A stretch of DNA of 64,000 nucleotides from an archaeon (lineage in GTDB: Archaea > EX4484-52 > WAPT01). The position numbers were made by a program, and so were the translations under genes. This document shows positions 36,915-61,563 of the stretch, piece after piece. The stretch spans positions 2,955 to 66,954 of the forward strand of contig JAPDKB010000008.1 in assembly GCA_029258795.1 (NCBI GenBank), read 5' to 3'. The stretch's first letter is position 1. The number at the start of each line of letters is the position of its first letter. The notes beneath the pieces are model-generated. The model was not told the origin of the DNA, ran no database searches, and saw nothing but the letters and a program-made list of their open reading frames with translations.

Positions 36915-36979
36915 ACAGGATTCTTATTTTGCGGTGCTGCCGGATTGTACCTAATTTTTAAGTTTTAAATTTTAATTTT

Positions 36980-36995
36980 TAGGAAATTTTTCCCA
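36980..36995. repeat. GGA-N6-TCC palindromic site
   Basis: TAGGAAATTTTTCCCA with T-rich left and A-rich right flank. Confidence 0.7.
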
Positions 36996-37065
36996 ATTAT
37001 AAAAAAATATAAGGTAACGACTCACATCCCTAGTAAGGAATTTCTATCCCTCGCTTTCGGGCTGT

Positions 37066-37449
37066 TCAGAATATCGCACTCCCTCTATAGAAGTTGTCTC
37101 TGGTCCCAAGTAAATTTCTCTTTTGGAATAGAGGTACAGCACAACTATAACACCAAATATGAATGCTGCAATGTTACCTAATAATCAAATTTGTTAGCAC
37201 ACTCAGAGAAAACAGGGCCACGGCGATTTTCCAAGCGGTTGGGTTCAGTTTTAACAGTCCGTACCAGATCACTGCACCAGCAAGCAGGAGTATTGTTGTA
37301 AGTATGATCAGTAGTCCCATCCATGGAGCATAGTAAGATATATAGCTCCATCTCTGAAGTACCACTCCTAGTCCAAGGAAGTACCACGCCAGAGAGAAGT
37401 AAAAAAGTCCAGCAAGGATTTTTACACCGAGTGGGGCTTCCCTCTTCAT
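37066..37449 (-). pseudogene. Orphan four-TM membrane protein, frameshifted near 37180
   Basis: ORF 37174..37449 continues in another frame as LGNIAAFIFGVIVVLYLYSKREIY...; strong GGAGGTGA RBS. Confidence 0.6.
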
Positions 37450-37709
37450 AGCATCACCTCCTAAACACTAACTCCTGTCTTTTTTACTTCCAGTCGTCAT
37501 CCCCGCGGACGTGCAAAGAAATCGCTCTGCCCTTCTGCCGCGGGTCACAACAATCTCTGCGATTTGAGAGAACTAAATGCCACGCTAGCGCTTCAAAAAC
37601 ATTCGTCCCCAGAAGTCAAGGAATTCTGTTGTTCTTAGAACAAATCGTGATTAAAACCAGAGAACTTAAAAAGCTTTCCGCGTTGCGTTTTTACAATTTT
37701 GGAGATTGT

Positions 37710-37964
37710 TTAAACCTTTCTTCTCAGCAGTCCCAGTCTTTCTCCTATTTCGAGCCACGCCCACGCCCAAACCACGGCTTCAAATGATCTCACATAGTCC
37801 TGTTTTTCCAGAAAATAGCGCGCATCCTTTATGTAAGCTTTGATGTTCTCCACGAAGCCCTTCTGTGAGTTATCCAGCAGCTCTATTTCGAGATTTTCAA
37901 GCTTGTTCAGCCATTTTTCCGTTTCCTGAATGAGCTGTTCTTTGATGTTGTCTTCACCCATCAT
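37710..37964 (-). CDS. DUF357 family protein
   Basis: AYIKDARYFLEK, FEAVVWAWAWLE; next to dph5. Confidence 0.85.
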   Translation of the reverse strand: MMGEDNIKEQLIQETEKWLNKLENLEIELLDNSQKGFVENIKAYIKDARYFLEKQDYVRSFEAVVWAWAWLEIGERLGLLRRKV

Positions 37965-38701
37965 TTCACCTCTATGAGCCTCAAAAACTCCTCCTCATGG
38001 TGCTCCAGCTCTGCAGGCAATATGAGGCAATGTGGCGGTTTTCCGAAATCTATACTTTTAAGTTTTGAAATCGAACCATAAAGTACGTTTTTGTCCCTGC
38101 TGCCAAGACGGGAAAGGACCACAATCTTTGTCTTCTCGTTGAAAATTCCGTTGCCTTTTTTCTCTTCCATCTTTAACAGGATGTCCAGAGCTGTCTTTAC
38201 ATCCATCCCTATATCGAGAAGAATTAAAGTGTGGAGGTTTGCTTTCAGGTTGTTGAGAATGTGGTCGTAAGGGCTGAGAGGAAAGTAATTTTCCCCCGGG
38301 AAGGGAAGGCTAACGACTCTGCCGAATTTATAAAGGGAAAGCCCGCTTTCACCAGCTGCCGTGAGGATTGAGGAGGCGTGTATCACCTCAACCTCTACGC
38401 CGGAAAGCATGCACTCCCTCACTATCTCCTTGTGTGTTGTTGCGAAGAGCGGATCGCCCGGCACGAGAAAAGCCACAACTTTGTTTTTAGCTTCTTTAAC
38501 AACCACGTTCCTCTCTTCAACATCCTCTCTCCTCAGTTCTACAATTTCCTTCCCTATCATTTTGCTCAGATTTTCAATGTTGATATTGAGCGGAGATGTG
38601 TATCTCTCAAAAAAAACGATGTCAGCTTTCTTGCATGCTTCCAGACCTCTTAAGCTCATGTCTTTCTCATCGCTAAGACCCAAACCCACAAGGTAAAGCA
38701 T
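37961..38701 (-). CDS. dph5: Diphthine synthase
   Basis: LYLVGLGL, ERYTS, GDPLFATTH, YKFGR, LHTLILLDI. Confidence 0.95.
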   Translation of the reverse strand: MLYLVGLGLSDEKDMSLRGLEACKKADIVFFERYTSPLNINIENLSKMIGKEIVELRREDVEERNVVVKEAKNKVVAFLVPGDPLFATTHKEIVRECMLSGVEVEVIHASSILTAAGESGLSLYKFGRVVSLPFPGENYFPLSPYDHILNNLKANLHTLILLDIGMDVKTALDILLKMEEKKGNGIFNEKTKIVVLSRLGSRDKNVLYGSISKLKSIDFGKPPHCLILPAELEHHEEEFLRLIEVK

Positions 38702-38753
38702 GATTTGTGTTTTTGGATAGATATTTTAAAAGGTTGTCAACCAATTTTTGTGT

Positions 38754-39140
38754 ATGGCGAGGTTTGGGAACATACTCAAAAAGCTCATCAAGATGGCAGA
38801 AACGGATGATGATGTGTTAGCGGTGCTGCTTTTCGGTAGTGTTGCCAGAGGAGAGAAAAATGGTAAAGACCTGGACATATGTCTTGTCTTTAAGAAGGAC
38901 ACGGATAAAAATAAAATATTCGAGAAAATGGTGGAATACGCTTCCATTTCCGATATTGTGGATGTTAAAGCGTTTCAGCTTCTCCCGCTTCATATGAGAA
39001 TGAGGGTGATTAGAGAAGGTAAGATTTTGCATGTTAAAAATGAGGATTTAGTGTACGATGTTGTAATATCTACACTCAGAGAGTTCGAGGAATTCAAGTT
39101 CATCTACCATTCCTATCTGGAAGGTGTGTTGAATGGATAA
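38754..39140 (+). CDS. mntA: MNT nucleotidyltransferase antitoxin
   Basis: LFGSVARG...DLD (GS-x-DxD). Confidence 0.88.
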   Translation: MARFGNILKKLIKMAETDDDVLAVLLFGSVARGEKNGKDLDICLVFKKDTDKNKIFEKMVEYASISDIVDVKAFQLLPLHMRMRVIREGKILHVKNEDLVYDVVISTLREFEEFKFIYHSYLEGVLNG

Positions 39141-39558
39141 GGAAAGGATACTCGCAAAAATAGATGAAATGGATGGATATCTGGAAGAGCTTGAAAGCAT
39201 CAGACCATCAACTTTTGAAGAATATGAGAGTAGCATCGAGAAAAAGCGCGCCTGCGAAAGACTTCTTCAGCTGGCCATAGAATGCGTTATAGATGTATGC
39301 GCGATGATCGTTAAGGAGTGCAAACTTGGATTGCCTGCTGATGAAGATGACATGTTCAGAAAGATAAGGAAAGCGGGTGTGATAAACAATGAGCTTGAGG
39401 AAAAGCTGAGAAAGATGAAGGGGTTCAGAAACATTTTGATACATCGCTACGGAGAGATAGATGATGAGCTTGTTTTTGAAAAGCTGTTCATGATTGAGGA
39501 TTTCGAGAAGTTTAAGGAAGCTGTGCTCGAATTTCTTAGAAAAGGTGAGATTGAGTGA
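39133..39558 (+). CDS. hepT: HEPN (DUF86) ribonuclease toxin
   Basis: RNILIHRY (RX4HXY); overlaps the MNT gene. Confidence 0.9.
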   Translation: MDKERILAKIDEMDGYLEELESIRPSTFEEYESSIEKKRACERLLQLAIECVIDVCAMIVKECKLGLPADEDDMFRKIRKAGVINNELEEKLRKMKGFRNILIHRYGEIDDELVFEKLFMIEDFEKFKEAVLEFLRKGEIE

Positions 39559-40445
39559 GCTCAGGCTTAAACGTTCGCAAGCTTCTCGAAGGAAAGGTAG
39601 GTGAGGATGAGTTAGAACACATACCGCGTGCTTTCGAAATAATAGGAGATATAGCCATAGTTGAGCTCGATGAAGTTGCAAGAAAGCATGCAAAGCTAAT
39701 AGCTGACGCGATAATGCAGCTAAACAAAAACGTGAAGGTCGTGCTGAACAAAGTTGAAGATGTCTCCGGCAAGTATCGTGTGCCGAGGTATGAAGTCATT
39801 GCGGCTAAGCAAAACGAAAGGAATTTCTCGCACATCAAAAAAGAGTTTCGCCCCACGAAAATAACTGAAACCGTACATACAGAACATGGATGTAAGTTCC
39901 TTCTGGATGTCAGTAAAGTGTATTTTTCCGCGCGCCTGAGTTTTGAAAGGAAAAGGATAGCTGAGATGGTGAGGGATGGCGAGAGAGTGCTCGTGATGTT
40001 TGCCGGTGTTGGTCCGTTTGCCATAGTGATAGCGAAGAATGCCAACCCTGCTGAGGTTGTTGGAGTTGAGCTGAACCCTCACGCTGTTGAATACTTCAGG
40101 AAGAACGTAGCACTAAACAAAGTTGAAGATAAGGTAAAAGTTGTGGAGGGAGATGTTGCAGAAATTGTGCCAAAACTGCAATATCAATTTGACCGTATCG
40201 TCATGCCTGCTCCGAAGGATGCTCCGGATTATCTGGAGGTTGCGCTTGAAAAGATAAAGGAGGGTGGAATGATCCATCTGTACACTTTTGCAAGCGAGGA
40301 GGAAATAGAAAGCAAGGATGTTGTGAAACGTGTGGAGGAGAGGTGCAAGAAAGCGGGTAAGAAAGCAGAGGTCGTATTCTTCAGGAAGTGTGGAGCCGTC
40401 GCTCCTTATCATTACAGAGTTGTGCTGGATTTGAAGATTGGATAA
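39555..40445 (+). CDS. trm5: Trm5/Taw2-family tRNA methyltransferase
   Basis: FEIIGDIA, KVYFSARL, MFAGVGPF, ELNP. Confidence 0.85.
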   Translation: MSSGLNVRKLLEGKVGEDELEHIPRAFEIIGDIAIVELDEVARKHAKLIADAIMQLNKNVKVVLNKVEDVSGKYRVPRYEVIAAKQNERNFSHIKKEFRPTKITETVHTEHGCKFLLDVSKVYFSARLSFERKRIAEMVRDGERVLVMFAGVGPFAIVIAKNANPAEVVGVELNPHAVEYFRKNVALNKVEDKVKVVEGDVAEIVPKLQYQFDRIVMPAPKDAPDYLEVALEKIKEGGMIHLYTFASEEEIESKDVVKRVEERCKKAGKKAEVVFFRKCGAVAPYHYRVVLDLKIG

Positions 40446-40453
40446 ATTTCCCA
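40438..40453. repeat. GGA-N6-TCC palindromic site
   Basis: TTGGATAAATTTCCCA, exact reverse complement of the site at 44258. Confidence 0.75.
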
Positions 40454-40486
40454 AAAAAATAGAAAAGAAAAATGAAAAAGATCAAA

Positions 40487-41044
40487 TCAGTGCAATGTCA
40501 CCCGTAATGTCTTTATCCGCATCGCTTTCGCCCCCTCTATCTGATCTCCGATTTCATTCCAGTCATGGATTCGTATCTTAAATTCTACATTGTTTGAAGG
40601 TTTTGTCTCTGGACCAACTATAGTAATAGTTATCTGTTCTCTCGGAACTTCGATAGCAGTATAATATATGTGGTCTGTTGGAAATCCTAAACCCTCCAAT
40701 TTTTCTAGAAATCTCTTAAATAAGGTTGGGATTCGGTAGAATTCTATGTCATTATTATCAGGATCCTCCAAATTAAAGTGGAATTTGGCTCCATTTTCCG
40801 TCTCTTCAATTTCATAGCATACAAGATTAACTCCTGACTCTGTCCAGACACACCCTTCTGGATTTTCCTCTTCTAATTTTTCTATTGCTTCAGTTAATCT
40901 CTCGACAGTTTCGTACCCTTCAAATGAATAGCTCCAGAGCACTGTTCCAAGAGCCTCGCCATACCCTAACTCTAAAATAATTTTCACAATACTTTCAAAA
41001 ATATCCAAAAGTTTACGAATCTCGCGTTCATACACCACCTTCAT
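40487..41044 (-). CDS. Orphan hypothetical protein
   Basis: GGAGGTGA RBS before ATG 41044; 185 aa, acidic. Confidence 0.7.
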   Translation of the reverse strand: MKVVYEREIRKLLDIFESIVKIILELGYGEALGTVLWSYSFEGYETVERLTEAIEKLEEENPEGCVWTESGVNLVCYEIEETENGAKFHFNLEDPDNNDIEFYRIPTLFKRFLEKLEGLGFPTDHIYYTAIEVPREQITITIVGPETKPSNNVEFKIRIHDWNEIGDQIEGAKAMRIKTLRVTLH

Positions 41045-41328
41045 AACCACATCACCTCCCAACTTTTCAAGGTGCACAGAATGGACAACTTCAGGTGCAT
41101 TAGGATAACCCAGGTCAAAGAATATCTCTGCTATATAAACGTGCTTTGCTGTTAAAGTGTGGTTCTAGGCGGGACAAACTAATGCAAACTAAGAACAAAG
41201 CTACCACTAGCACCACTAGTTATTCTGTCTCATCTAAGAACAAAGTCTGGTCAGCTCTTTGTTTGCGCAAGGAATTCTTAAACCAAAGATTTTAAATTTG
41301 TTAATAGTGGTGGCTACAGAAAGCGGCT

Positions 41329-43285: not shown

Positions 43286-43410
43286 GGGGCCGTGGTGTAG
43301 CTTGGTTATCATTCCGGCTTTGGGAGCCGGCGACCCCGGTTCAAATGCCATGGAGCAAGCTCCTTGCATTTCTAGCTGCTCCGCGGCTGAAAATCCGGGC
43401 GGCCCCACCA
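43286..43410 (+). tRNA. tRNA-Pro(TGG) copy 1 with 48-nt T-loop intron (43346-43393)
   Basis: GGGGCCG acceptor, CCGGC-TT-TGG-GA-GCCGG, BHB TTCA/TGAA with AAT bulges, ACCA end. Confidence 0.93.
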
Positions 43411-43716
43411 GAGCCGGAGAGAATTGAATCTACTTTTAGAATCCTATGTGTCCCGAGAAATCTATTTTTGTTTTGGGTTCTCTGTACTGGACAATTTAGT
43501 GTATTGCCCAATTATTTAAAAGTGTTTTGTGGAGTGCCATCATCATTAACAACTTCCGTAAATTATATAAGTATTGCTGATTTAGGAGATGTTCATCAAA
43601 AAATATCTGCGTCTTTTTCTTGGGCGGGACAGAAGTTGTGGTTTATCTAGTTTTTAGTATGGGTCTGTATTGTCCCGCTCCTCCCTTCAAGGAGAAGGGG
43701 TTTTGGAGGTGAGAAG

Positions 43717-44118
43717 TTGAGAGATTGGATCGATGTTGTTGTAAAATGGGGGTTGGAGGATGCGCAATACCTTATGAAAAAGGCAAGAGTCGAAATGTCG
43801 TGGGATGGAGAAGATACGGAGATGCAGCGCAAAATAACTGGCAGTATAAGAAAAGAATTTAACGCCGCTCTCCAAGAAATAAAGAAGCAAAACGGTCTTT
43901 TGGGTAGCGAGGGCGAGATTGATACGCTCGAAATAAATTTAATACGCAAAATAGCTTGTAGGCACTGGCTGCAGGAATTGAAATCAATAGCGGAGCGCCG
44001 CAAGGTTCTGGGTGCTTCAAAGAAGATAAACGAGGCAATAAAAGAGGTGGAGAAGGAGATCAAGAATCTTCTGGAAGAAGCAGAACATATCTACATGAAC
44101 AACAGCGCACTTTCTTAA
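43717..44118 (+). CDS. Orphan helical protein
   Basis: GGAGGTGA RBS plus TTG start; preceded by TGTCCCGCTCCTCC leader. Confidence 0.65.
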   Translation: MRDWIDVVVKWGLEDAQYLMKKARVEMSWDGEDTEMQRKITGSIRKEFNAALQEIKKQNGLLGSEGEIDTLEINLIRKIACRHWLQELKSIAERRKVLGASKKINEAIKEVEKEIKNLLEEAEHIYMNNSALS

Positions 44119-44257
44119 TTTTTTAGAAAAAGTGGGGGTGGTAGGAATGCGTGTATCCAATATTATTAGCAAGATTGTGCTGATAATAATAATTGTGCTT
44201 GCAATGTTTGGAGCGTATAATATAATCAAGATATTCATCTTATTTTTTGTTTATTTT

Positions 44258-44273
44258 TGGGAAATTTATCCAA
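44258..44273. repeat. GGA-N6-TCC palindromic site
   Basis: TGGGAAATTTATCCAA after a T-tract. Confidence 0.75.
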
Positions 44274-44286
44274 CAAAAAACCTGAG

Positions 44287-47629: not shown

Positions 47630-47663
47630 TATTTGAACTTTAGCTTGGAAGAAATTAATAGGT

Positions 47664-51726: not shown

Positions 51727-51738
51727 CCCCGTTGAAAT

Positions 51739-52831: not shown

Positions 52832-52867
52832 ATTCTTCCCACTCAAAATATTTTTGGGTGAGATTTC

Positions 52868-53467
52868 ATGAAGTTGCTGTGTGCTTCAGATTACCATGCA
52901 AACCACCGCTTTCTTGAGAGCACTGTGGAGCACGCTGAAAAGCTGGAGCCGGATGTGTTCGTTTACTGTGGGGATTTCGTAATGCAGGAGTATGCGGAGG
53001 AACTCATAAAAAGGTTGGAGGAAGTTGGCGTGCCGGTGCTTGCGGTTGCCGGCAATCTTGATCTCGGTATCATCTATGAAAGCGAGATGTCGGAAATAGT
53101 GATGTACGGTTTGAGAGAGCTTAAGGGCTATCACTTTTTACTTGTGAGCGCCACCTATCCCTTCATTCTGGATGAAGCTCTTGCCGATGTTGAGGGTATA
53201 GACCCTTCCAAGCTGATATTCGTGACACATTACCCGCCAAAAGGTGTGCTTGACAAAATATGGAGCAACGAGCATGTTGGCTATGATGGTTATGCTGAAT
53301 TTGATGAGAATGTCAAGCCAGCGCTCCACGTTTTCGGTCACATTCATGAGGACAACGGGTTTGAGATTAAGAGCAACACGATTTTTGTTAATTGCGCTGC
53401 CACACCATCCAGAAAGATCTACTTGGTTGATCTGAAAAAAAGAGAGGTAAGGGATGTTAAGCTATGA
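52868..53467 (+). CDS. Metallophosphoesterase
   Basis: SDYH, GD, GN, THYPP, GHIHE. Confidence 0.88.
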   Translation: MKLLCASDYHANHRFLESTVEHAEKLEPDVFVYCGDFVMQEYAEELIKRLEEVGVPVLAVAGNLDLGIIYESEMSEIVMYGLRELKGYHFLLVSATYPFILDEALADVEGIDPSKLIFVTHYPPKGVLDKIWSNEHVGYDGYAEFDENVKPALHVFGHIHEDNGFEIKSNTIFVNCAATPSRKIYLVDLKKREVRDVKL

Positions 53468-54399
53468 AGCAAAAGCTGAATGTGCCGCGGCTCTTCAGGG
53501 AGCGCTACAGGAGGATTCTTGGGGATGAGGTAAAGGTTCTTGTTGATTACTGCTTCAAACCGCTCAGGAAAAGCATAAGGATCAACACGCTAAAGATTGA
53601 TGTGGATGAATGTGTGAAAATGCTTGAATCCAAAGGGTGGGAACTGAAGCAGGTGCCATGGTGTAGCAACGGCTTCTGGGTGGAGAACAGAAATGAGGAG
53701 CAGCTTGGAAACACGCTGGAGCACTTTATGGGCTACTATTACGTGCAGGAAGCATCATCCATGATCCCTCCTATTGTGCTGCAGCCAGAGGAAAAGGATT
53801 TCGTGCTTGACATAGCTGCCGCGCCAGGCTCTAAGACCACGCAGATGGCTGAAATGATGAAGAACAAGGGGTGTATAGTGGCAAACGACATCCAGATTCA
53901 GCGGATAAAGGTGTTGAGGTTCAATCTGGAGAAGCTCGGAGTCATAAACACCGTTGTGACGAGAATGGATGGAAGGAAGTTCATAAAGTTTAAGGAGAGG
54001 TTTGATAAAGTTCTGGTGGATGCCCCTTGCTCATCCGAGGGTATCATGAGGAAGGACTGGAAAGCGTTTTCCAGATGGAACATCAAATTCATAAAGGAGA
54101 TGGCAAAGCTGCAGAAAAAGCTGGTGGATGCTGCTGCGGTCACGCTTAAGAGAGGGGGTGTAATGGTTTACTCCACATGCACCATGTCTCCGGAGGAGAA
54201 TGAGGCGGTGGTGGATTATGCTGTAAAGAAGCACGGGCTGGTGGTGGAGAAGGTAAAGGTTAAGGGGCTTAAAGCCAGGCACGGCATAACTGAATGGGAA
54301 AGCCAGCAATTCGATGAAAGTGTGAGGAACTGCTTGCGCATCTGGCCTCAGGATAATGACAGCGAGGGATTTTTCGTTGCAAAGTTGAGGAAGGAGTGA
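53464..54399 (+). CDS. RsmB/NOL1/NOP2 family RNA m5C methyltransferase
   Basis: QEASSM, AAPGSKT, DAPCS, YSTCT, EENE. Confidence 0.95.
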   Translation: MKQKLNVPRLFRERYRRILGDEVKVLVDYCFKPLRKSIRINTLKIDVDECVKMLESKGWELKQVPWCSNGFWVENRNEEQLGNTLEHFMGYYYVQEASSMIPPIVLQPEEKDFVLDIAAAPGSKTTQMAEMMKNKGCIVANDIQIQRIKVLRFNLEKLGVINTVVTRMDGRKFIKFKERFDKVLVDAPCSSEGIMRKDWKAFSRWNIKFIKEMAKLQKKLVDAAAVTLKRGGVMVYSTCTMSPEENEAVVDYAVKKHGLVVEKVKVKGLKARHGITEWESQQFDESVRNCLRIWPQDNDSEGFFVAKLRKE

Positions 54400-54404
54400 G
54401 GGAA

Positions 54405-54872
54405 ATGAGCAAGCTGAAAATTATGAGTGAAGAGGAAAAGAGGGAGATGCTGGACTATCTGGAGGAGAGGTTCGGGATAGATAGGGGTGTATTTAACGGT
54501 TACATTTTCATTAAGAGCGGGAGGAAGGTGTGGATAACAAACAGGGATGTTGTGGAGAAGAACTTCTCCGGGATGAATGTGGAAGCTGCGGGCATGCTTT
54601 TTGTTAGATGGGAAAAAATTAAGGACAAGATCAAGATCACCACGAATGCTGCGCAGATTTTTGGAAAGTACGCAACAAAGAACGTTGTGGAAGTGGATGA
54701 AATTCAGCTCCACCAAGTTCTATGCGGACTCAACCTGTATGATGTGGATGTTGATTGTGAAGACGGATACGTGCTTTTAAAGTATGGGGAACACATTCTT
54801 GGGGTGGGGTTGAAGCACGGGAACTTCATCAAAAACCTGATTCCAAAAGCAAGGAGAGTTAAAAAGCTTTAA
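54405..54872 (+). CDS. Nip7/PUA-like protein (RsmF C-terminal-like)
   Basis: Follows the NOL1 gene; GYVLL..ILGVG..IKNLIPKARR. Confidence 0.7.
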   Translation: MSKLKIMSEEEKREMLDYLEERFGIDRGVFNGYIFIKSGRKVWITNRDVVEKNFSGMNVEAAGMLFVRWEKIKDKIKITTNAAQIFGKYATKNVVEVDEIQLHQVLCGLNLYDVDVDCEDGYVLLKYGEHILGVGLKHGNFIKNLIPKARRVKKL

Positions 54873-54977
54873 AACTTTGGCTTTAAAAGGGTGAATTGAA
54901 AGCAAAAAAATTCGCTTCATGGATTTTTCAGTTAGGACGCATGTTGTGTTTGAGCAGATAGCTCCATGTTCTTCCAA

Positions 54978-55080
54978 ATCCCGGCTCCGGGGACAGTGCT
55001 TTCTCTCATCCTTCCTCTCCAGACGGAATTCTTATCCGTCGCATCCCCCATGAGAAAAGCGTCCATACCGGAGCCCGGAT
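54978..55080 (+). ncRNA. Free-standing BHB hairpin upstream of the tRNA-Gly-like gene
   Basis: Outer stem GGCTCCGG/CCGGAGCC, central GGAC/GTCC helix, AGT and ATA bulges, inner stem GCTTT(C)TCTCAT/ATGAGAAAAGC. Confidence 0.55.
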
Positions 55081-55085
55081 TCCAT

Positions 55086-55156
55086 GCGGCCGTGGTGTAG
55101 TGGGATCACGCCCCGTATCCAGCGGGGAAACGCCGGTTCGATTCCGGCCGGCCGCA
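55086..55156 (+). tRNA. tRNA-Gly(TCC)-like gene with non-canonical A33 and no CCA
   Basis: GCGGCCG/CGGCCGC acceptor, CCCCG-TA-TCC-AG-CGGGG, GCCGG-TTCGATT-CCGGC. Confidence 0.7.
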
Positions 55157-55186
55157 AATTCATGAAGATGTGTGGAGGTGGAGAAG

Positions 55187-55351
55187 ATGGCACCTCCTGA
55201 GAAATGTGATGAGTGCGGTTCCACCAACCTCAAGAAAGTTGTGATCGCCAAAATACCAACAGGGCCAATGGTCATTGGAGGGAGCACACCGTTAATGGAG
55301 TTAGCAGTATATCAATGTCGAGAGTGTAAAAACATAATGGGTCCCAAGTAA
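55187..55351 (+). CDS. Small Zn-ribbon protein, 54 aa
   Basis: Manual translation: MAPPEKCDECGSTNL...YQCRECKNIMGPK; GGAGGTG RBS. Confidence 0.65.
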   Translation: MAPPEKCDECGSTNLKKVVIAKIPTGPMVIGGSTPLMELAVYQCRECKNIMGPK

Positions 55352-55391
55352 AAGCAAGCTTTCAGACCATTTTATTTTTTCTTTTTATTTT

Positions 55392-55407
55392 TGGGAAATT
55401 TGTCCTG
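55392..55407. repeat. GGA-N6-TCC palindromic site
   Basis: TGGGAAATTTGTCCTG after a T-tract. Confidence 0.7.
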
Positions 55408-55598
55408 ATTTTGGTTTTGGATGAATGTGGAAGGGGCTCAGTTCAGCAAAAGGTTTATAAATTTTCGAGATATGTGTGACTAAAGAGTAACAAAAGTTGT
55501 CGATGCTGTAAATAATGGATCCCGTGAAAAAGCGGGATACCTAATTCTGGTTTAAGTAGTGGACAGCGTGAAGATGGCTGTCTCTATCTGTCCCGCAT

Positions 55599-55645
55599 GC
55601 CCCTGTTCAGGTTTTCTTTCCCGGGTGCAATTCCCGGCAAGGGTC
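55599..55645 (+). ncRNA. tRNA minihelix-like element (acceptor stem plus T-arm)
   Basis: GCCCCTG/CAAGGGT (6 of 7 pairs) enclosing a linker and CCGGG-TGCAATT-CCCGG. Confidence 0.55.
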
Positions 55646-55670
55646 GGAAGATATTAAAAGGAGGTGAAGA

Positions 55671-55973
55671 ATGATGGTGTCGTACTGCGCAGCATCGGAA
55701 ATGCTGAAGGGCACTTCCGAACTATGCGAGGTGTATCTGTTCGTTATACTCTATCTATCTGGATTATTGGCCGCATACGTCATCATAAAGCTGGAGAGAG
55801 AGCCAGAGATTCTGGAAAAGCTGACGAACAAACTGAATAGGAAGATAAGCTGGACTGGAAAGACGCTAGATAACATGGATGTTTGGGAAATAATAGTCAC
55901 GAGCATCATTCTGATTTCGCCAGTGCTATTTGTTATTCCATTCCTGCTAGGGTTCTGCCCGCGCTACTGCTAG
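55671..55973 (+). CDS. Orphan two-TM membrane protein
   Basis: GGAGGTGA RBS; two hydrophobic helices. Confidence 0.65.
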   Translation: MMVSYCAASEMLKGTSELCEVYLFVILYLSGLLAAYVIIKLEREPEILEKLTNKLNRKISWTGKTLDNMDVWEIIVTSIILISPVLFVIPFLLGFCPRYC

Positions 55974-56013
55974 CATAAATGTCCGCTAAGCTTTTCCCCA
56001 AATTTTTTGTCAT

Positions 56014-56141
56014 GCCCCCGTAAGGTAGCCAGGCATCCTTCCTTCCGGCGGATGGTTCGTTTTTCTGGAAAAGGAGGAGGTGCTATCCCGCCGCCACCTC
56101 ATTGCCGGAAGGAAACCCGGGTTCAAATCCCGGCGGGGGCA
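56014..56141 (+). ncRNA. tRNA-like element with the anticodon loop replaced by a ~55-nt insert
   Basis: GCCCCCG/CGGGGGC acceptor, AGG/CCT D-arm, 10-bp stem TCCTTCCGGC/GCCGGAAGGA, intact T-arm; no clear BHB or anticodon. Confidence 0.55.
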
Positions 56142-56185
56142 CTTTTCGAAATTTTTGGTGAAAACAAAACCTTCCTATTTTTTGT

Positions 56186-56231
56186 GCGGCCGAAAAAGCA
56201 CTGTGTCCGGGTGCAATTCCCGGCGGCCGCT
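56186..56231 (+). ncRNA. Perfect tRNA minihelix-like element
   Basis: GCGGCCG, 14-nt linker, CCGGG-TGCAATT-CCCGG, CGGCCGC. Confidence 0.65.
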
Positions 56232-56255
56232 GGAAAACTGTGAAAAAAGGAGGAG

Positions 56256-56534
56256 GTGAGAATTTTGAGGGAGAAAAAACCGGGGTCTGATTGGATATTG
56301 ATATGGGTTGAAAAGGATATTAAGAAAGAAGGTATGTTGAAGAAAATAATAGAGTATGCTAGGGAAAATGAGTTGATTGAGCAGGATAGAAAGTGGCTTC
56401 ACCCTACAGAAATAGAGGAAGTAGTAGGAAAGGTGCTAAAACACATAATGAAAGAAAAAGATCCTAACGCACCCCTGACACCAGAGAGGGCTGAAGAGCT
56501 CTATAACAAACACTATGTCACCCACGAACACTAA
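56256..56534 (+). CDS. Orphan hypothetical protein
   Basis: GGAGGAGGTGA RBS directly after the minihelix. Confidence 0.6.
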   Translation: MRILREKKPGSDWILIWVEKDIKKEGMLKKIIEYARENELIEQDRKWLHPTEIEEVVGKVLKHIMKEKDPNAPLTPERAEELYNKHYVTHEH

Positions 56535-56568
56535 TCGTCACCCATTAATTTTTATTTTTTGAAATTTA

Positions 56569-56584
56569 TGGGAAGAAATTCCCG
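56569..56584. repeat. GGA-N6-TCC palindromic site
   Basis: TGGGAAGAAATTCCCG. Confidence 0.7.
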
Positions 56585-56640
56585 TTTAATTGAGATTAAA
56601 AAATTTAAATGCGAGAAATAAAAAGCTGTGTGTTGTTGGT

Positions 56641-56762
56641 GGGCCGGTGGTCTAGCCTGGAAGGACGCTGGCTTCGCACGCCAGAGACCCCGGGTTCAAA
56701 TGCTGCGGAGCAAGCATGAATATGCTGGAACTCCGCAGCTGAGAATCCCGGCCGGTCCACCA
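56641..56762 (+). tRNA. tRNA-Ala(CGC) with 45-nt T-loop intron (56701-56745)
   Basis: G3:U70 pair, CTGGC-TT-CGC-AC-GCCAG, BHB TTCA/TGAG with AAT bulges, ACCA end. Confidence 0.93.
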
Positions 56763-56765
56763 CAT

Positions 56766-57440
56766 CTATTTCAGCACTTTTCCTGTCATTTTCCACCATA
56801 TGAGAAGGTCAAGCTCTCCCACCTGCATTTTCTTGTGATGTGCTATACCACACAACAACTTTTCAAGCTTGAGATAATCTTTTCTTTTTGAAAGATTTGG
56901 ATCCCACCAGAAGGGTATACACCCTTCTCGATAAAGCCAGTCGAGCACATGCCTGTCAACTATGGCAACATCAAGCTGTCCCGTGTTTCTTAAAAAGTGA
57001 CTTGCCTCCTTGTATCCAATACCCTTGATATTTTTAACCAGCCATTCCCGAACCATTGCACTTTCTTCCAGCTTGAGCACTTCCAGCACTTCATCCATCT
57101 TTTGCCATGCATCGATGATGTATTTTGCTTTTCTCTGATAAAACCTCACCCCACATTTTCTGAGAGCATTACGAATCCGTCGCTCATCCATATTGTCATT
57201 CTCCTTTTCAGCGAGCATCTTCTGAAACTTCAGACCCGCAATTGCTGACGAATTGGCGGCAGAGATGCAGAACGCAAGCTCGGAAAATATGGTGGCGTCA
57301 AACTCCGTATCAAAATATGGCTGAAAGTTGTGATGTGTTTTTCCTTTCCTTCCAAGCTCGATGAATTTAAGCACTCTATCTCTTATCGCTTTTATCACTT
57401 CAGGCCTCTCCTCCAGACGTTTGTAAGCATCGCAGGACAT
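56766..57440 (-). CDS. ogg: 8-oxoguanine N-glycosylase/DNA lyase
   Basis: FSELAFC, KGIGYKEASHFLRN, AIVDRH, W..MTGKVLK. Confidence 0.92.
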   Translation of the reverse strand: MSCDAYKRLEERPEVIKAIRDRVLKFIELGRKGKTHHNFQPYFDTEFDATIFSELAFCISAANSSAIAGLKFQKMLAEKENDNMDERRIRNALRKCGVRFYQRKAKYIIDAWQKMDEVLEVLKLEESAMVREWLVKNIKGIGYKEASHFLRNTGQLDVAIVDRHVLDWLYREGCIPFWWDPNLSKRKDYLKLEKLLCGIAHHKKMQVGELDLLIWWKMTGKVLK

Positions 57441-57829
57441 ATTCTGACAACTCCCTCAAAGTTCTCTATCTTTTTGTGCACTTCCATCAGCTCATCCATG
57501 CTGTTGCATACCACTTCCACTATCAAATTGTGATCACCACTGGTTATATATATCACTTCCACTTCCTTAAATCCCTTGAGTTTTTCGTAAACCTCAACCA
57601 GTTTTTCTGGTTTCACATCAATGCCAGTTAGCGATATTGCCATTCCTGCTCTCACGGGATCGATTAGAGCTTTGTATCCCAGCACAACACCGCTTGCTTC
57701 AAGCTTCTCTATCCTTTTTCTTATTGCTGCCTCACTTACCTTAAAAAGCTTTGCCAAAGCCACATTCGGGATTCTTGCGTTTCTTATCAGTGCTCTTATC
57801 AGGAGTTTATCGTTTATTCTATTCTTCAT
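57395..57829 (-). CDS. Lrp/AsnC family transcriptional regulator
   Basis: NARIP..LAK..VSEAAIRKRIEKL, SGDHNL. Confidence 0.92.
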   Translation of the reverse strand: MKNRINDKLLIRALIRNARIPNVALAKLFKVSEAAIRKRIEKLEASGVVLGYKALIDPVRAGMAISLTGIDVKPEKLVEVYEKLKGFKEVEVIYITSGDHNLIVEVVCNSMDELMEVHKKIENFEGVVRICPAMLTNVWRRGLK

Positions 57830-57919
57830 ATTTCGCATTTCGAACTTAAAGTTTTTAAATCTTTAAAATAATGTTTATATAAGATACCGAAATGTTCGAA
57901 TTTGTGAAGGTGGAAAAGA

Positions 57920-58504
57920 ATGGAGAAGACAATGGAGAATCTTGTCAAGGCGTTCATAGGGGAAAGTCAGGCAAGGAATCGCTATAACATGTATGCAAAG
58001 ATCGCCAAGAAAGAGGGATACGAGCAGATAGCAGAAATATTTGAAATCACAGCAGAAAATGAAAGAGAGCATGCAAAATGGCTCATGAAAATGATCCAAG
58101 AGTTGCTCAAAAAAATGAATAAGGGTATGAGCAGCATTAAGGTGGAGGCTGAAGCCCCTCTGGTTGTGGGAAACACAGTGGAGAACCTGAGGGCGGCTAT
58201 AGAGGGGGAGCACTATGAGAACAGTGAAATGTATCCTGAATTTGCAAGGATTGCGGAAGAGGAAGGGCTGAAAGATATTGGTGAAAGGTTGAGAGCAATA
58301 GCGAAAGCTGAAGAGCATCACGAGGAGCGTTACAGGAAGCTGTTTGAGCTTGTGGAAGCAGGTAAGTTCTTCAAGAGGGATAAGGAAGTTGTGTGGGTTT
58401 GCAGGAAGTGCGGCTATGTCCGTACTGGGACAGAACCTCCAGCCAAATGTCCTTCGTGTGACCACCCATACAATTACTTTCAGGTTAAGTGTGAGGAGTT
58501 TTGA
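57920..58504 (+). CDS. rbr: Rubrerythrin
   Basis: AFIGESQARNRY, ExxH motifs, C-terminal CRKCG...CPSC. Confidence 0.96.
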   Translation: MEKTMENLVKAFIGESQARNRYNMYAKIAKKEGYEQIAEIFEITAENEREHAKWLMKMIQELLKKMNKGMSSIKVEAEAPLVVGNTVENLRAAIEGEHYENSEMYPEFARIAEEEGLKDIGERLRAIAKAEEHHEERYRKLFELVEAGKFFKRDKEVVWVCRKCGYVRTGTEPPAKCPSCDHPYNYFQVKCEEF

Positions 58505-58629
58505 TTTTCCCTCTTCCTTCCATTTATTCTCTGGAGTCGTTTAAAGCATTTACATTTAATTAGTGAAAAAACTGATGTGCAGGAAAGAAATATATTTTTG
58601 TTCTGCCCACCTTAATCTTGGTGAGTGTC

Positions 58630-58800
58630 ATGGAGAACATAGCGGAGATTAAGGAGAGGATCTTGAAAGCTGGCCTCGGGGTTCAGACGGAAAAGGTGGA
58701 AAAAGATAATGAGCAGTTCTGCCCAGAGTGCGGTATGCGGCTTGTGCCAGCAGAGGGCTGTGTATTCTGTCCGTCATGCGGGTGGAGTCCGTGTAAATAG
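58630..58800 (+). CDS. Small Zn-ribbon protein
   Basis: CPECG...EGCVFCPSCGWSPC, resembles the C-terminal ribbon of class II ribonucleotide reductases. Confidence 0.65.
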   Translation: MENIAEIKERILKAGLGVQTEKVEKDNEQFCPECGMRLVPAEGCVFCPSCGWSPCK

Positions 58801-58813
58801 TTAGGGTGGTGTT

Positions 58814-59386
58814 ATGACGAGTGATCTTGAATGCATATTTTGCAAGATAATAGAGAAGAAAATTCCTGCAGCGGTGATTTATGAGGATCCTTATGTCATC
58901 TCATTTCTTGATATAAATCCTCGATTTAAGGGGCATGCACTCGTCATTCCAAAGGTGCACGTCTCAACCCTTGATGAGTTGGGGGATGAGGCTTTGGCAC
59001 ACCTTTTCGTGGTGGTGAAGCATGTTGCCAAGAATTTGAAGGAAACGCTTGGCGCGGATGGCTACAACATCATAAGCAACAACGGAAGTGTTGCAGGACA
59101 GGTTGTTCCACACTTGCACATCCATGTTGTTCCGCGATACGCTGATGAGAAGAAAGGAATTGGTTTTGAAGCCACATTCCCTGTTGATGAAGAGGCCAAG
59201 AACAAACTGCACGAAATTGCTGAAAAGGCCAAGATAAAGCACGAGATAAAACCAGCATTTAGGAAAGATGATAAAGCAGATACGAGCGAAAAAGAGGAAA
59301 AGAAGGATGGAAAGGAAGAAAATAAAGAAGCATTACCATATGAAAGCGAGTATTTTGAGGACAACGGTGTGCCGAAGTTCAGGTGA
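58814..59386 (+). CDS. HIT family hydrolase
   Basis: CIFCKI, GHALVIPK, HLHIHVVPR. Confidence 0.95.
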   Translation: MTSDLECIFCKIIEKKIPAAVIYEDPYVISFLDINPRFKGHALVIPKVHVSTLDELGDEALAHLFVVVKHVAKNLKETLGADGYNIISNNGSVAGQVVPHLHIHVVPRYADEKKGIGFEATFPVDEEAKNKLHEIAEKAKIKHEIKPAFRKDDKADTSEKEEKKDGKEENKEALPYESEYFEDNGVPKFR

Positions 59387-59414
59387 GCTCTACTTTTTGC
59401 TTTTTTTATTTTAA

Positions 59415-59430
59415 TGGGATTAATTTCCTA
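59415..59430. repeat. GGA-N6-TCC palindromic site
   Basis: TGGGATTAATTTCCTA between a T-tract and an A-tract. Confidence 0.7.
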
Positions 59431-59449
59431 AAAAACAAAGAAAAAAAAA

Positions 59450-59665
59450 TCAAGAAATCTTCTTTAAGCGAATTTTGTAAATCTCTCCTTCATTGGTGAT
59501 ACTTGAAATACACCAGCTATAACCTTCCGGCCATATTTCTCCATTCATCCCTATTATTTTGTTGTCCTTTACCCTCCCCCACGTTACGATCTCTCCCGCG
59601 CGTTTATCCTTGCTAACGGCACCGCATACCTCTAGCAAGCCAAGTAAGAACTCGTTATCCTCCAA
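59450..59665 (-). CDS. Orphan small protein
   Basis: GGAGGTGAG RBS plus TTG start. Confidence 0.5.
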   Translation of the reverse strand: MEDNEFLLGLLEVCGAVSKDKRAGEIVTWGRVKDNKIIGMNGEIWPEGYSWCISSITNEGEIYKIRLKKIS

Positions 59666-59726
59666 TCTTACTCACCTCCATCCGGAATTGATCTTTTGCT
59701 AAAAGCGCATCTTCAAAAAAAGAGAA

Positions 59727-60743
59727 TTATTGTTGCGGCAGTATTATTGGTGGTGCCACTGGCTCGGTAAGATTTACTCCGGGGTAGAAGTTAGATGGTG
59801 CAGGCACTATGATTATTGCGTTGTTCTCCGATTCCGCGAACTTCTGAAGCACCTGTAGATAGTACCACTGCACGTATTCTGGATTTCTTCTCAGCGATTC
59901 TCCAATTATCTGGTTAGCCTTTGCTATACCCTCTGCCTCAACCTGCTTTCTTTCTGCCTCTCTCTTTTCTTTCTCAAGAATGTACTGCATTCTCTGGGCT
60001 TCTTGTTGTGCCTGCAGTTTAGCCTCGATTGCATCCTTCAGTCGGGTTGGAAGTTCTATTTTTCTCAGGTACACTCCCGTGACATCAAAGTACTGTGATA
60101 GTCTCTTCTCCAGCTCATTGTGAATTGATGCTTCCACTTCACTTCTTTTTGATCCATAAATTTCCTCTGCGTCGTACTGGGAAATCACATCCCTCACCGC
60201 GCTTCTAATGGTTGCTATCTTCCATTGCTCCAGATAGTCCTGATTCTTGAACGTCTTTGCGATTTCTTCCAGCTTGTCCTTTCTTATCTTTGTCGCAACC
60301 GAGAGATCAATTCGAATCTCCAGTGCGTCCTTGCTCAGAACCACGATGCTCGGATAGACAAGCCTAGAGGTAGCTATTTCCTCGGATTCGGCGGAAGCTG
60401 TGGCGGGTATCATTTCCTCCTTGCTTACAAAATCGACGGTTCTCACACCAACATAATAGATCTCCACGCTCTGTGTTAGTGGGTTCCTCCAGTGAATGCC
60501 GGGTTCTGCAGTACCTACGAATTTTCCGAACTCTTTGATCACCGCTTCTTCCGTTTGGTCTACCGTGTAGACTCCTAGCGCGCAGAAAGCTATTATGATT
60601 GCAATTGCACCAGCAATTACCCACTTCAACCACCATGGCCTTCGCTTTTTCTCTTCAGATCTTCTTTCACTCCCTCCACTCCAACCTTCAACTCTAGCTT
60701 CCTCCGGAGAAATAGGTCCATCCATCTCCAAGGGGTCTTCCAT
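59727..60743 (-). CDS. SPFH/band 7 (prohibitin-like) membrane protein
   Basis: TM helix, EFGK..EPGIH, IRSAVRDV, AIEAK..AQQEAQR. Confidence 0.93.
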   Translation of the reverse strand: MEDPLEMDGPISPEEARVEGWSGGSERRSEEKKRRPWWLKWVIAGAIAIIIAFCALGVYTVDQTEEAVIKEFGKFVGTAEPGIHWRNPLTQSVEIYYVGVRTVDFVSKEEMIPATASAESEEIATSRLVYPSIVVLSKDALEIRIDLSVATKIRKDKLEEIAKTFKNQDYLEQWKIATIRSAVRDVISQYDAEEIYGSKRSEVEASIHNELEKRLSQYFDVTGVYLRKIELPTRLKDAIEAKLQAQQEAQRMQYILEKEKREAERKQVEAEGIAKANQIIGESLRRNPEYVQWYYLQVLQKFAESENNAIIIVPAPSNFYPGVNLTEPVAPPIILPQQ

Positions 60744-60750
60744 CTTTCTA

Positions 60751-60808
60751 ACCTCCCCCGGGCCGCTATTCCCTGACTTGCGTCAGGGGCGACACCCGGT
60801 GTGGGAGG
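60751..60808 (-). promoter_or_regulatory. Structured 5' leader sequestering the RBS of the SPFH gene
   Basis: Reverse strand: ACCTCCC...CCGGG...CCCTGAC-GCAA-GTCAGGG...CCCGG-GGGAGGT. Confidence 0.5.
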
Positions 60809-61086
60809 TAGAGAAGTATCACTACAATACTCATATCTTTCGTCTCGAGGTAAGAAGTCAGATTTTGTTTTTAACAGAAACCGTTTTTATCTAAACCTTT
60901 ATATTTTTTACTATTTGGTGGTTCTTTCAGGTTAACATGATCTTCAATCTCTCTCTGGCTAACAAATAAATTCTTGACTGAGGATATACTTACTGAACAT
61001 CAATAAAAGTTGTGGAACGTGTGGGAGCTGTTTCTTGTCCAAGTAGCTTTCAGAATATGATTGATGTGTCCCGCTCTGTCCCGTGT

Positions 61087-61135
61087 GCTCCCGTGCGAGC
61101 CCTGCTTGTGCCCGGGTTCAAATCCCGGCGGGAGA
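61087..61135 (+). ncRNA. tRNA minihelix-like element with a single internal hairpin
   Basis: CTCCCG/CGGGAG, GCGAGC-CCT-GCTTGT hairpin, CCGGG-TTCAAAT-CCCGG. Confidence 0.55.
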
Positions 61136-61515
61136 TGATATGTGGCGGGAGATGAATTTTGGAATGCCGCCGGGGGGCGCCAGCCCGGTGGTTTGTGACC
61201 GCCTACTTTTCGGCGGTACTGGCGCACAAAAGTTTGTAATGGTTAGAGGGGGGTGGATATGGAAGCTCCAGGCTTCGAGCTAATATTCGCAATAATTGGA
61301 CTTTTAGCAACTCTGTGGTTATGAAAAAAGCGATTACAAGAGAGGAGGTGAAAATGTGCTGAGGCGAAGGGATGGAGGCCCCATCGACAGAACGGGCCAA
61401 TGAATTATAGTGATTCTAATGACTCTCACTTTTGTGTACATACTACTGGGTGCTGTGAATATTCTTAGAGAGCTCATGAGCTAAACAATTTCCCAATTTT
61501 TTATTTTTCATAATT

Positions 61516-61531
61516 TGGGAAATATTTCCCA
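61516..61531. repeat. GGA-N6-TCC palindromic site (perfect palindrome)
   Basis: TGGGAAATATTTCCCA with extended inverted flanks. Confidence 0.78.
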
Positions 61532-61563
61532 TAAAATGAAAAAATAAAAAATGGGAAGGAAGT

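Follow-up and report, generated by a model that had tools for sequence, protein, structure and literature searches.

Strain-variable small-gene units with tRNA-related heads and palindromic tails in a DPANN archaeon

The genome of a DPANN ("Nanobdellati") archaeon from a hydrothermal vent (G000; 1.17 Mb, 23 contigs, 96% complete) carries a family of small-gene units that are scattered between core genes on both strands, have their own TATA boxes and form no array. At least nine units with recurring signals lie in the 64,000-nucleotide stretch of DNA analyzed here, which we call the window (contig C3:2955-66954; coordinates are window positions unless a contig is given). An earlier note on this DNA had placed eight of them between housekeeping genes, and all eight are there; we add a ninth at 61513-62400 on the minus strand. 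Comparison with related genomes and vent metagenomes proves that the presence of some of these units varies between strains. The explanation that we favor, tentatively, is that the units are tRNA-derived expression modules for accessory small genes that have spread by duplication and ordinary recombination.

Units and their variation between strains

The comparisons draw on two genomes of the same genus (the congeners G001 and G002), on one from another family of the order (G036) and on the contigs of four hydrothermal-vent metagenome runs (X1-X4), in which uncovered parts carry no meaning. X1 is probably the source sample and for that reason is not treated as independent. The units and the tRNA elements among them are listed below (nt, nucleotides; aa, amino acids; ORF, open reading frame).

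36977-37690 (-), unit 1: TATA box; AGAATTCCTTG box at 37617-37627; CCCGCGG hairpin at 37502-37544; Shine-Dalgarno box at 37455; frameshifted membrane ORF at 37174-37449 plus a continuation, with no Pfam match; palindrome at 36982-36994
40435-41300 (-), unit 2: TATA box and AGAATTCCTTGCG box at 41268-41278; TGTCCCG at 41170-41176; Shine-Dalgarno box at 41053; 185-aa orphan ORF; palindrome at 40440-40452, the tail overlapping the trm5 stop codon
43240-44276 (+), unit 3: promoter with AGAATTCCTTGCG box at 43261; tRNA-Pro(TGG) at 43286-43410 with a T-loop insert of ~48 nt (43347-43394), then its trailer; TGTCCCG twice; CTCCTCC hairpin leader; orf133 at 43717-44118; hydrophobic orf52; palindrome at 44259-44271
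48917-51180 (+), unit 4, 2264 bp: second tRNA-Pro(TGG) at 49142-49260; two CTCCTCC-type hairpin leaders; coiled-coil ORFs at 49663-50016 and 50363-50656; frameshifted orf133 paralog at ~50775-51043; palindrome at 51086-51098
54880-55410 (+), unit 5: long hairpin at ~54977-55082; tRNA-Gly(TCC) at 55086-55157; Shine-Dalgarno box 17 nt past the tRNA; zinc-ribbon ORF of 54-59 aa; palindrome at 55393-55405
55540-56000 (+), unit 6a: TGTCCCG at 55589; minihelix at 55599-55644; Shine-Dalgarno box at 55660; 100-aa membrane ORF at 55671-55973
56014-56141 (+): pseudo- or odd tRNA derived from tRNA-Glu(TTC), identified by alignment with real tRNA-Glu
56145-56590 (+), unit 6b: promoter; minihelix at 56186-56230; Shine-Dalgarno box at 56252; orf92 at 56256-56534; palindrome at 56570-56583
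56641-56762 (+): tRNA-Ala(CGC) with a T-loop insert, downstream of unit 6b
59387-61496, units 7 (-) and 8 (+): one joint insertion or deletion
Unit 7 (-): Shine-Dalgarno-sequestering hairpin; SPFH/Band 7 gene at 59727-60743 (Pfam); orf71; two-way tail with palindrome at 59417-59429
Unit 8 (+): TGTCCCG at 61067 and 61077; minihelix at 61087-61135; G+C-rich hairpins; very short ORFs
61487-62400 (-), unit 9: minihelix at 62368-62322; Shine-Dalgarno box at 62307-62313; orphan ORF of ~244 aa at 62295-61564; shared two-way tail with palindrome at 61517-61530 and T-runs on both strands

Contigs of X2 (depth 21.9) and X3 skip unit 4 and join position 48916 to 51181, the X3 contig (281 nt) extending 140 nt to either side of the joint; in another X2 contig, four letters separate 48913 from 51182. 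The corresponding locus of G001 measures 53 nt and holds one similar copy of AACGTAACAA, the 10-bp direct repeat that flanks unit 4 in the source genome (48911-48920 and 51175-51184). This combination of a short locus and a single repeat copy makes the empty state look ancestral. Units 7 and 8 are skipped together in an X2 contig that joins 59386 to 61497 with eight other letters between and keeps the tail at 61517. X2 also holds a mosaic allele at the tRNA-Pro site, in which unit 4 cargo (49393-50254 and 50849-50947) is followed by the 3' end of unit 3 at 44098. Three further joints (43305 to 56114, 5666x to 6111x and 55394 to 61529), with sides of 20-22 nt, were discarded as other tRNAs or repeats. 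The insertion point of unit 4 is just ahead of the TATA box of a small zinc-ribbon-like gene, which with its promoter occupies 51181-51449, is 80% identical to G001 and is far more conserved than the surrounding units.

Other sites differ between the congeners. Between trm5 and herA the source genome has unit 2, G002 has 73-76 nt without a tail, and G001 has 872-911 nt comprising a different head (a CCCGCGG hairpin), an unrelated membrane ORF and the same tail. The interval from the PUA gene to tRNA-Ala measures 1767 nt in the source genome versus 773 nt in G001, where the pseudo-tRNA and units 5 and 6a are missing. The G001 interval between HIT and the synthetase gene contains an unrelated, AT-rich 307-aa gene and no tail, and at 86 kb on contig C4 a conserved tail and minihelix occupy an interval of 1015 nt in the source genome versus 615 nt in G001. 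Units 1 and 6b and the C4 minihelix unit, on the other hand, are syntenic orthologs in the genus. The unit 1 ORF has an intact ortholog of ~150 aa at the corresponding place in G001, accompanied by the same hairpin and tail, and in both congeners the orthologs of unit 6b consist of a minihelix, an orf92 homolog (40-41% identity) and a tail, followed by tRNA-Ala. The exchangeability proposed in the earlier note is thus borne out by unit 4, by units 7 and 8 and by the trm5-herA site; the syntenic fixation that it had weighed against this applies to the three orthologous units, and the boundaries of the variable ones do not fall at a constant motif. The membrane ORF of unit 1 itself (37040-37449, -) has a frameshift or stop near 37175 relative to the intact G001 ortholog, a difference that may reflect either decay or a mistake in the assembly.

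Units 3 and 4 are demonstrably paralogous. They share the tRNA and its trailer (82% identity over 180 nt), the TGTCCCGCTCCTCC leader (78% over 49 nt) and the tail, and both encode a member of the orf133 family (46% identity over 35 aa, E = 5e-6 in a tiny search space), frameshifted in unit 4. It follows that at least one unit arose by copying. The earlier description of the cargo as unrelated ORFans does not always hold: the statement that the cargo differs every time is not quite right because of the orf133 paralog, and unit 7 carries a gene of a known family, SPFH/Band 7.

The homology searches were word-based and can miss distant relatives; within that limit, orf185 of unit 2 had no homolog besides itself among 5.8 billion proteins and orf133 of unit 3 matched only itself. 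The unit 9 protein had no Pfam match, no match among 1.84 billion representative proteins and none in a second homolog search, and a PHROG scan of 10 cargo ORFs returned nothing beyond weak coiled-coil noise. Small hydrophobic ORFs with sequestered Shine-Dalgarno boxes recall type I toxin-antitoxin systems, a reading that was set aside since half of the cargo is soluble. One ORF of unit 8 (61260-61325, 21 codons) begins MEAPGFE and continues into a hydrophobic run; we take it to resemble a free-standing PGF-type C-terminal sorting signal.

Tails, heads and genomic setting

The strongest signal common to the units is the tail, an oligo-T run followed by a GGGAAA..TTTCCC palindrome of 12-14 bp (GGGAAATTTATCCC). 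Among 13 aligned tail copies, G32, G33, A34 and A35 and T41, C42 and C43 are invariant; conservation is limited to GGGA-N6-TCC(C), or 4-5 bp per arm, and the right arm is not conserved. TTTNNGGAWWWWWWTCC matches the window four times versus 0.02 expected, GGGAAAWTTRTCC with at most one mismatch five times versus 0.45 expected, and the exact expression GGGAAA[AT]TT[AG]TCC six times genome-wide, four of them within the window. Tail sites number 12 in the 1.17-Mb genome: eight in 24.6 kb of the window (2.1% of the genome) and four on contig C4. The tail profile was trained on 13 sequences (the 12 sites, one read both ways) and recovers these by construction; the informative result is therefore that nhmmer and Infernal searches of the whole genome with this profile found no additional site except one weak match at C4:24095.

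By hand inspection and a crude script, every tail lies downstream of small family-less ORFs, the only annotated gene directly upstream of any tail being HIT, at a two-way tail. Tail and head motifs were not found at ordinary core genes, where the earlier note had asked whether they might be equally frequent. The palindrome is kept at syntenic sites in both congeners while its flanks diverge (13/13 identical positions in unit 1, 14/14 at C4:86 kb). Where genes are in tandem it stands ~15-30 nt ahead of the next TATA box, and in five cases it lies between convergent genes. On each transcribed strand the palindrome comes after the T-run, which rules it out as a terminator hairpin of the bacterial kind.

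All four genomes of genus g13, which belongs to another family of the order, have tail-like sites as well. In G036 (locus L040, C35:3527-4800) four tail-type palindromes ring a 100-aa winged-helix gene. The source genome has a homolog of this gene (95 aa, 46% identical, E = 3.5e-25; C7:48166-48450, -), which stands tail-to-tail with an Xer-like gene (C7:47321-48160); a search of this locus revealed no palindromes nearby. The winged-helix protein is a candidate for the palindrome-binding protein, a lead rather than a result. The operator of NrpR has the form GGAA-N6-TTCC; the palindrome reads GGAA-N4-TTCC, and NrpR is ruled out by this spacing.

The earlier note had also listed head signals, which fared unevenly. 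TGTCCCG is enriched, with 12 window matches versus 4.0 expected and 65 genome-wide, and outside coding sequence nearly all occurrences lie in these units, in a single C4 unit or in a single tRNA intron (contexts judged by eye). AGAATTCCTTG has four exact copies in the genome: the heads of units 1-3 hold the three non-coding ones, and the remaining copy is within a coding region; in units 2 and 3 the box stands 11-12 nt after a TTTAAAA box. With one mismatch allowed, its five matches versus 2.9 expected are not significant. A copy of GGGTGCAATTCCC on contig C1 was rejected as stray, since it lies in coding sequence. GGAGGTG matches the window 27 times, 13 of them in units (hand count), and is a general ribosome-binding site of the genome; being present genome-wide, it is uninformative about the unit family.

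The heads are of several different kinds. The recurring tRNA elements reported earlier are all present (tRNA-Pro twice, tRNA-Gly, tRNA-Ala, the tRNA-Glu-derived element and minihelices), and judged from their sequences they would form a series of tRNA decay, from an intact duplicate through an A33 variant and a pseudo-tRNA to a minihelix. The intact duplicate is tRNA-Pro(TGG), which is present twice with a T-loop insert in each copy; exons and 3' trailer are 98% identical and the inserts differ. Between HerA and HypE, where the source genome has tRNA-Pro(TGG) (43286-43410), G001 has tRNA-Pro(CGG) (C24, g1r 15261-15335). Related inserts, GCTGCGGAGCAAGC...CCGCAGCTGAAA, occupy the same T-loop position in at least nine tRNA genes:

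T-loop inserts in the window: 43347-43394, 49203-49244 and ~56702-56746
T-loop inserts elsewhere in G000: C1:82997, C2:32050, C2:190607, C3:78117 (-), C4:63549 and C5:34848 (-)

These inserts account for the low Rfam scores of many tRNAs (34 matches in the genome, 20 above the cut-off). G001 tRNAs at the matching Pro and Ala places are insert-free, as is its tRNA-Glu(CTC). Taken with the different inserts in the same tRNA-Pro(TGG) exons, this suggests that T-loop introns were recently gained, lost or replaced within the genus.

The A33 variant is the tRNA-Gly(TCC) of unit 5, a second copy with A instead of U at position 33 (TATCCAG) and, unlike most tRNAs of the genome, without an encoded CCA; the canonical tRNA-Gly(TCC) is at C2:32001. 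The pseudo-tRNA at 56014-56141 aligns with the real tRNA-Glu(TTC) (C3:78096-78168, minus strand) and with G001 tRNA-Glu, to which 26 nt are identical. Its acceptor stem and T arm are as in the real tRNA-Glu, its anticodon stem is weakened, and ~57 nt containing a GGAGGTG / CACCTC hairpin are inserted before the T arm. Deleting every single insert in turn and running ARAGORN on the products was ambiguous, with many anticodons, and the alignment with tRNA-Glu was preferred.

A minihelix consists of a 7-bp acceptor stem, a spacer of 3-18 nt and a T arm with a 5-bp T stem and a 7-nt T-like loop. The source genome has five, four of them in the window:

Minihelices in G000: 55599-55644, 56186-56230, 61087-61135, 62368-62322 (-) and C4:86496-86463 (-)

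A Shine-Dalgarno box and start codon lie 9-20 nt downstream of four of the five, or 27 nt in the case of the C4 copy; the minihelix of unit 8 has more structured RNA downstream and no close Shine-Dalgarno box. Those of units 6a and 6b, the C4 copy and the G001 copy of 6b stand at a tRNA-like distance after a TATA box (by eye). The acceptor stem of the unit 6b minihelix is that of the unit 5 tRNA-Gly, and 22 nt in the T arm of the unit 8 minihelix are identical to the tRNA-Glu-derived element. Of 42 genomes of the order, a covariance model built from eight copies matches three, all members of this genus (five matches in G000 and two each in G001 and G002); one G002 match is outside the training set and heads the orf92 ortholog with a tail and tRNA-Ala behind it. 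In the alignment 97.9% of cells are paired, and eight of 12 pairs changed on both sides. Because the copies came from a scan that requires pairing, the fair evidence for covariation is that from orthologous pairs, and these show compensatory changes in the acceptor stem of the C4 unit (GAGCCGG/CCGGCTC in G000 versus GGGCCGG/CCGGCCC in G001 and G002) and in the T stem of the unit 6b orthologs (CCGGG/CCCGG versus CCCGG/CCGGG).

Some leaders instead fold into hairpins that pair CCUCC-type with GGAGG-type runs, sometimes the ribosome-binding site itself (predicted folds of units 3, 4 and 7 and of C4:66.7 kb). The CCCGCGG hairpin of unit 1, bracketed by GA / GAUGA, reads like a putative kink-turn and occurs once in G000, at least twice in G001 and twice in G002. 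One G002 contig (L015, G002:C3, 5144 bp) has the same 20 nt at both ends, beside CCCGCGG hairpin heads; the close repetition of this head accounts for the break in the G002 assembly there.

Around the units, Pfam assigns ordinary genes that alternate with short stretches of family-less ORFs: geranylgeranyl reductase, UppS, DUF357, TP-methylase, Trm5, HerA, HypE/F/D, TBP, a phosphoesterase, RsmB, a PUA protein, Ogg, Lrp, rubrerythrin, HIT and a class I tRNA synthetase. An MNT/HepT toxin-antitoxin pair (38748-39558) fills 870 nt between the TP-methylase gene and trm5, an interval of ~80 nt in both congeners. For the units, Rfam scans of the whole window at the gathering threshold and of 36800-61700 with permissive settings gave tRNA or weak tRNA-like matches alone, with no family for heads or tails, and a scan of three C4 loci gave zero matches. 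Outside the units, an intron-containing tRNA and a 5S rRNA gene lie at 15569-15704 (-) and 21667-21783 (-), and G+C is low (0.33-0.35) at 17000-19000. Contigs C10, C12 and C17 are short, with a G+C of 0.28-0.31 versus 0.45 for the remaining assembly, and C11 has four consecutive tRNAs, three without an encoded CCA; these four contigs may be foreign DNA or misbinned.

Origin and spread of the units

If the units are tRNA-derived expression modules, each would be transcribed from a tRNA-type promoter, with a redundant tRNA copy or its remnant as the head. By analogy with t-elements, the head probably acts as a substrate of RNase P or tRNase Z or as a protective 5' structure, and it would set the 5' end of the downstream mRNA 9-20 nt ahead of the strong Shine-Dalgarno box; the genome encodes an RNase P RNA (133.6 bits) and an RNase Z (359 bits). 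In the other leaders, CCUCC-type hairpins would pair with the Shine-Dalgarno box. Transcription would end in the oligo-T run, and the palindrome behind it is most likely a putative protein site that serves as an insulator, roadblock or operator. Modules would multiply by DNA-level duplication together with the tRNA head, unit 4 being presumably a diverged copy, or an alternative allele, of unit 3 at a new site. Gain, loss and swapping would then proceed through illegitimate and homologous recombination in fluid intergenic sites, with no motif-dedicated recombinase.

The boundaries of the variable segments and the enzymes of the genome bear on this last step. The distance from the indel boundary to the tail is 0 nt for the G001 counterpart of unit 2 (unit 2') and 29 and 20 nt for units 7 and 8, with no constant motif. 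For unit 4 the left boundary lies 225 nt ahead of the tRNA and the right one 82 nt past the palindrome (75 nt between), both with the unit's own 10-bp repeat, and inspection of its ends revealed no inverted repeats. The sole tyrosine recombinase in the genome is Xer-like (279 aa, Phage_integrase and SAM-like N-terminal domains, contig C7), and there is one DDE_Tnp_1 transposase, on the 8-kb contig C13. A genome-wide search gave no match to RVT_1, Y1_Tnp or OrfB_IS605 and only sub-threshold matches to the TnpB zinc ribbon; with the genome 96% complete, absence of these enzymes is likely, not proven. The search for tyrosine recombinases and reverse transcriptases proposed earlier therefore yields one of the former, outside the window, and none of the latter. 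No integrase domain or fragment was present in the window ORFs scanned, as the earlier note had remarked. Its suggestion of cassettes mobilized in trans, whether integron-like, dif-module-like or resembling short interspersed elements (SINEs), is not borne out: boundaries lie at no fixed motif, and there is no array, terminal inverted repeat or reverse transcriptase.

Several points nevertheless weigh against expression modules spread by ordinary recombination, and some of them favor true site-specific cassettes, in which the tail is an attC- or dif-like site used in trans by the Xer-like or another enzyme and units are excised and inserted at tails. Three observations fit a site-specific mechanism better: the block inserted in G001 relative to G002 stops precisely where the palindrome does, at its outer edge; the site of units 7 and 8 keeps one tail when empty and has two when filled; and the clean 10-bp direct repeat of unit 4 resembles a target-site duplication. 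Tails are also confined to these units. In our own parsing the palindrome and its AT-rich flanks can be written in the 11-6-11 geometry given for dif in PMC2958812, with eight of 11 arm positions matching in the best copy, and the winged-helix gene whose G036 relative is ringed by palindromes adjoins the Xer-like gene. Against cassettes stand the unit 4 boundaries, which carry its own repeat and lie away from its tail, the trm5-herA site of G002, which is empty without any tail, and the restriction of conservation to GGGA..TCCC. The units moreover have their own promoters and lie on both strands without an array, three of them are stable orthologs, and there is no palindrome near the winged-helix or Xer genes of the source genome. 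On balance we consider site-specific cassettes rather unlikely. Three further reservations concern the modules themselves. Minihelix processing and T-run termination are predicted from the sequence; the palindrome follows the T-run and so would not be needed for intrinsic termination, its binding protein being only a candidate; and units 1, 2 and 7 have no tRNA-like head. The minihelix copies were chosen by a scan that requires pairing and the model matches are fitted to structure, so that covariation among eight copies leans toward structure.

Decayed viruses or plasmids integrated at tRNA genes, with heads as att-type tRNA duplications and tails as the terminators of the element, are an unlikely source of the units. 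They would account for the clustering of units around tRNA-Pro, tRNA-Gly, tRNA-Glu-like and tRNA-Ala genes, for the duplicated tRNA copies, for orphan cargo that includes small coiled-coil, membrane and zinc-ribbon proteins, and for the MNT/HepT pair inserted nearby. However, no integrase or fragment of one appears in the scanned window ORFs, the sole genomic tyrosine recombinase is Xer-like, and the 10 cargo ORFs have no PHROG match beyond coiled-coil noise. The minihelices contain both acceptor strands and therefore are not att-type half-tRNA repeats, and their compensatory changes are likewise unlike att duplications; what is repeated for tRNA-Pro is the entire gene and its trailer. The units measure only 0.5-2.3 kb, each has its own promoter, and several are conserved across species. 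It is very improbable that there is no family at all and that ordinary promoters, terminators, tRNA genes and fast-evolving small genes merely coincide, the motifs being due to chance or general. GGAGGTG and oligo-T runs are indeed general signals, AGAATTCCTTG with one mismatch is not enriched, the heads are heterogeneous, and other variable islets lack the motifs, such as the G001 interval from HIT to the tRNA synthetase gene. This view is already strained by the tail (12 sites) and the minihelix (five), which are far rarer than genes yet co-occur in the same units, and by the paralogy of units 3 and 4.

DPANN archaea have tiny genomes with many orphan genes of unexplained origin. At this locus one can follow, at single-site resolution, how strains from a single vent population add, duplicate and swap orphan small-protein genes and let them decay, and these genes are linked to the tRNA decay series described above. 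If the minihelices are processed like t-elements, this would be a natural archaeal case in which an entire class of genes has its mRNA 5' ends set by tRNA-processing enzymes. It would also provide a concrete model for the way in which promoters and RNA-end signals come to new genes. The palindrome, rare and conserved, may be an operator, an insulator or a recombination site, with two small proteins of the same genome as possible partners. A more far-reaching possibility would be an undescribed route by which a reduced archaeal genome makes and spreads genes: orphan genes are captured behind tRNA genes, the tRNA-plus-gene module is copied to new intergenic sites, the redundant tRNA is whittled down to a minihelix kept as an RNase P or tRNase Z handle, and the tail is bound by the winged-helix protein encoded next to the lone Xer-like recombinase, marking the end of the module and a recombination site. 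Taken whole, this is a long shot.

Comparison with known systems

Integrons combine intI, attI and a Pc promoter with an array of promoterless cassettes that carry attC. Like integron cassettes, the units contain one small ORF or a few, many of them orphans, are closed on the 3' side by an imperfect palindrome and vary in cargo from strain to strain. They differ in having no intI, attI, Pc or array, in their own promoters on both strands and in a palindrome of just 12-14 bp; there is no integron integrase, and the boundaries of unit 4 are not at its palindrome.

The repetitive extragenic palindromes (REP) and mosaic elements (BIME) of bacteria are also short palindromes at gene 3' ends, often between convergent genes and likely protein-bound or terminating. 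The tails are far fewer (12 copies), belong to an archaeal host, have no accompanying RAYT/Y1 transposase and follow the T-run. The pdif modules lie between pairs of sites, and the units share with dif and pdif a short palindrome with an AT-rich center, a single Xer-like recombinase in the genome and, for units 7 and 8, a position between two palindromes. They differ in the number of sites (12), in their arms, of which only 4-5 bp each are conserved, and in the single tail of most units; no tail bounds the unit 4 indel, which has one inside it, leaving units 7 and 8 as the sole two-tail case. As defined in PMC2958812, dif has two 11-bp arms around a 6-bp spacer, and a chromosome normally has just one such site.

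Transposable elements were rejected. A tRNA-derived SINE or retroelement would call for a reverse transcriptase, an A-rich or similar retroposition tail and a lack of internal genes, and the 96% complete genome has no RVT_1 match; the units, moreover, carry ORFs. Elements of the IS200/IS605 type or miniature inverted-repeat transposable elements do not agree with the lack of inverted repeats at unit 4, the lack of Y1_Tnp and OrfB_IS605 matches and the sub-threshold TnpB matches. The hallmarks of an integrated virus or plasmid, an integrase (whole or split) and attL/attR repeats of part of the tRNA, do not agree with the units either: the window ORFs scanned have no integrase domain, the tRNA-Pro copies are complete genes with trailers, and the minihelices have both acceptor strands. 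Archaeal tRNA-integrating elements and replacement-type flexible islets share with the units variable orphan DNA beside tRNA genes, between conserved flanks and with alternative alleles. Here, in contrast, there is no integrase and no att half-tRNA repeat, and the units are much smaller; islet turnover alone does not explain the shared heads and tails.

The closest parallel for the heads is the t-element, described in PMC4326828 and PMC1920247 upstream of 5S rRNA in Haloferax volcanii and in plant mitochondrial mRNAs. As in those accounts, a tRNA-like fold with acceptor and T-arm features is fused to another transcript just upstream of a functional RNA, and acceptor stem and T arm are both found in the minihelices, the copies being those from the pairing-requiring scan. 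What sets the present family apart is that a bare minihelix precedes the Shine-Dalgarno box of small orphan genes, in strain-variable units that end in a palindromic tail.

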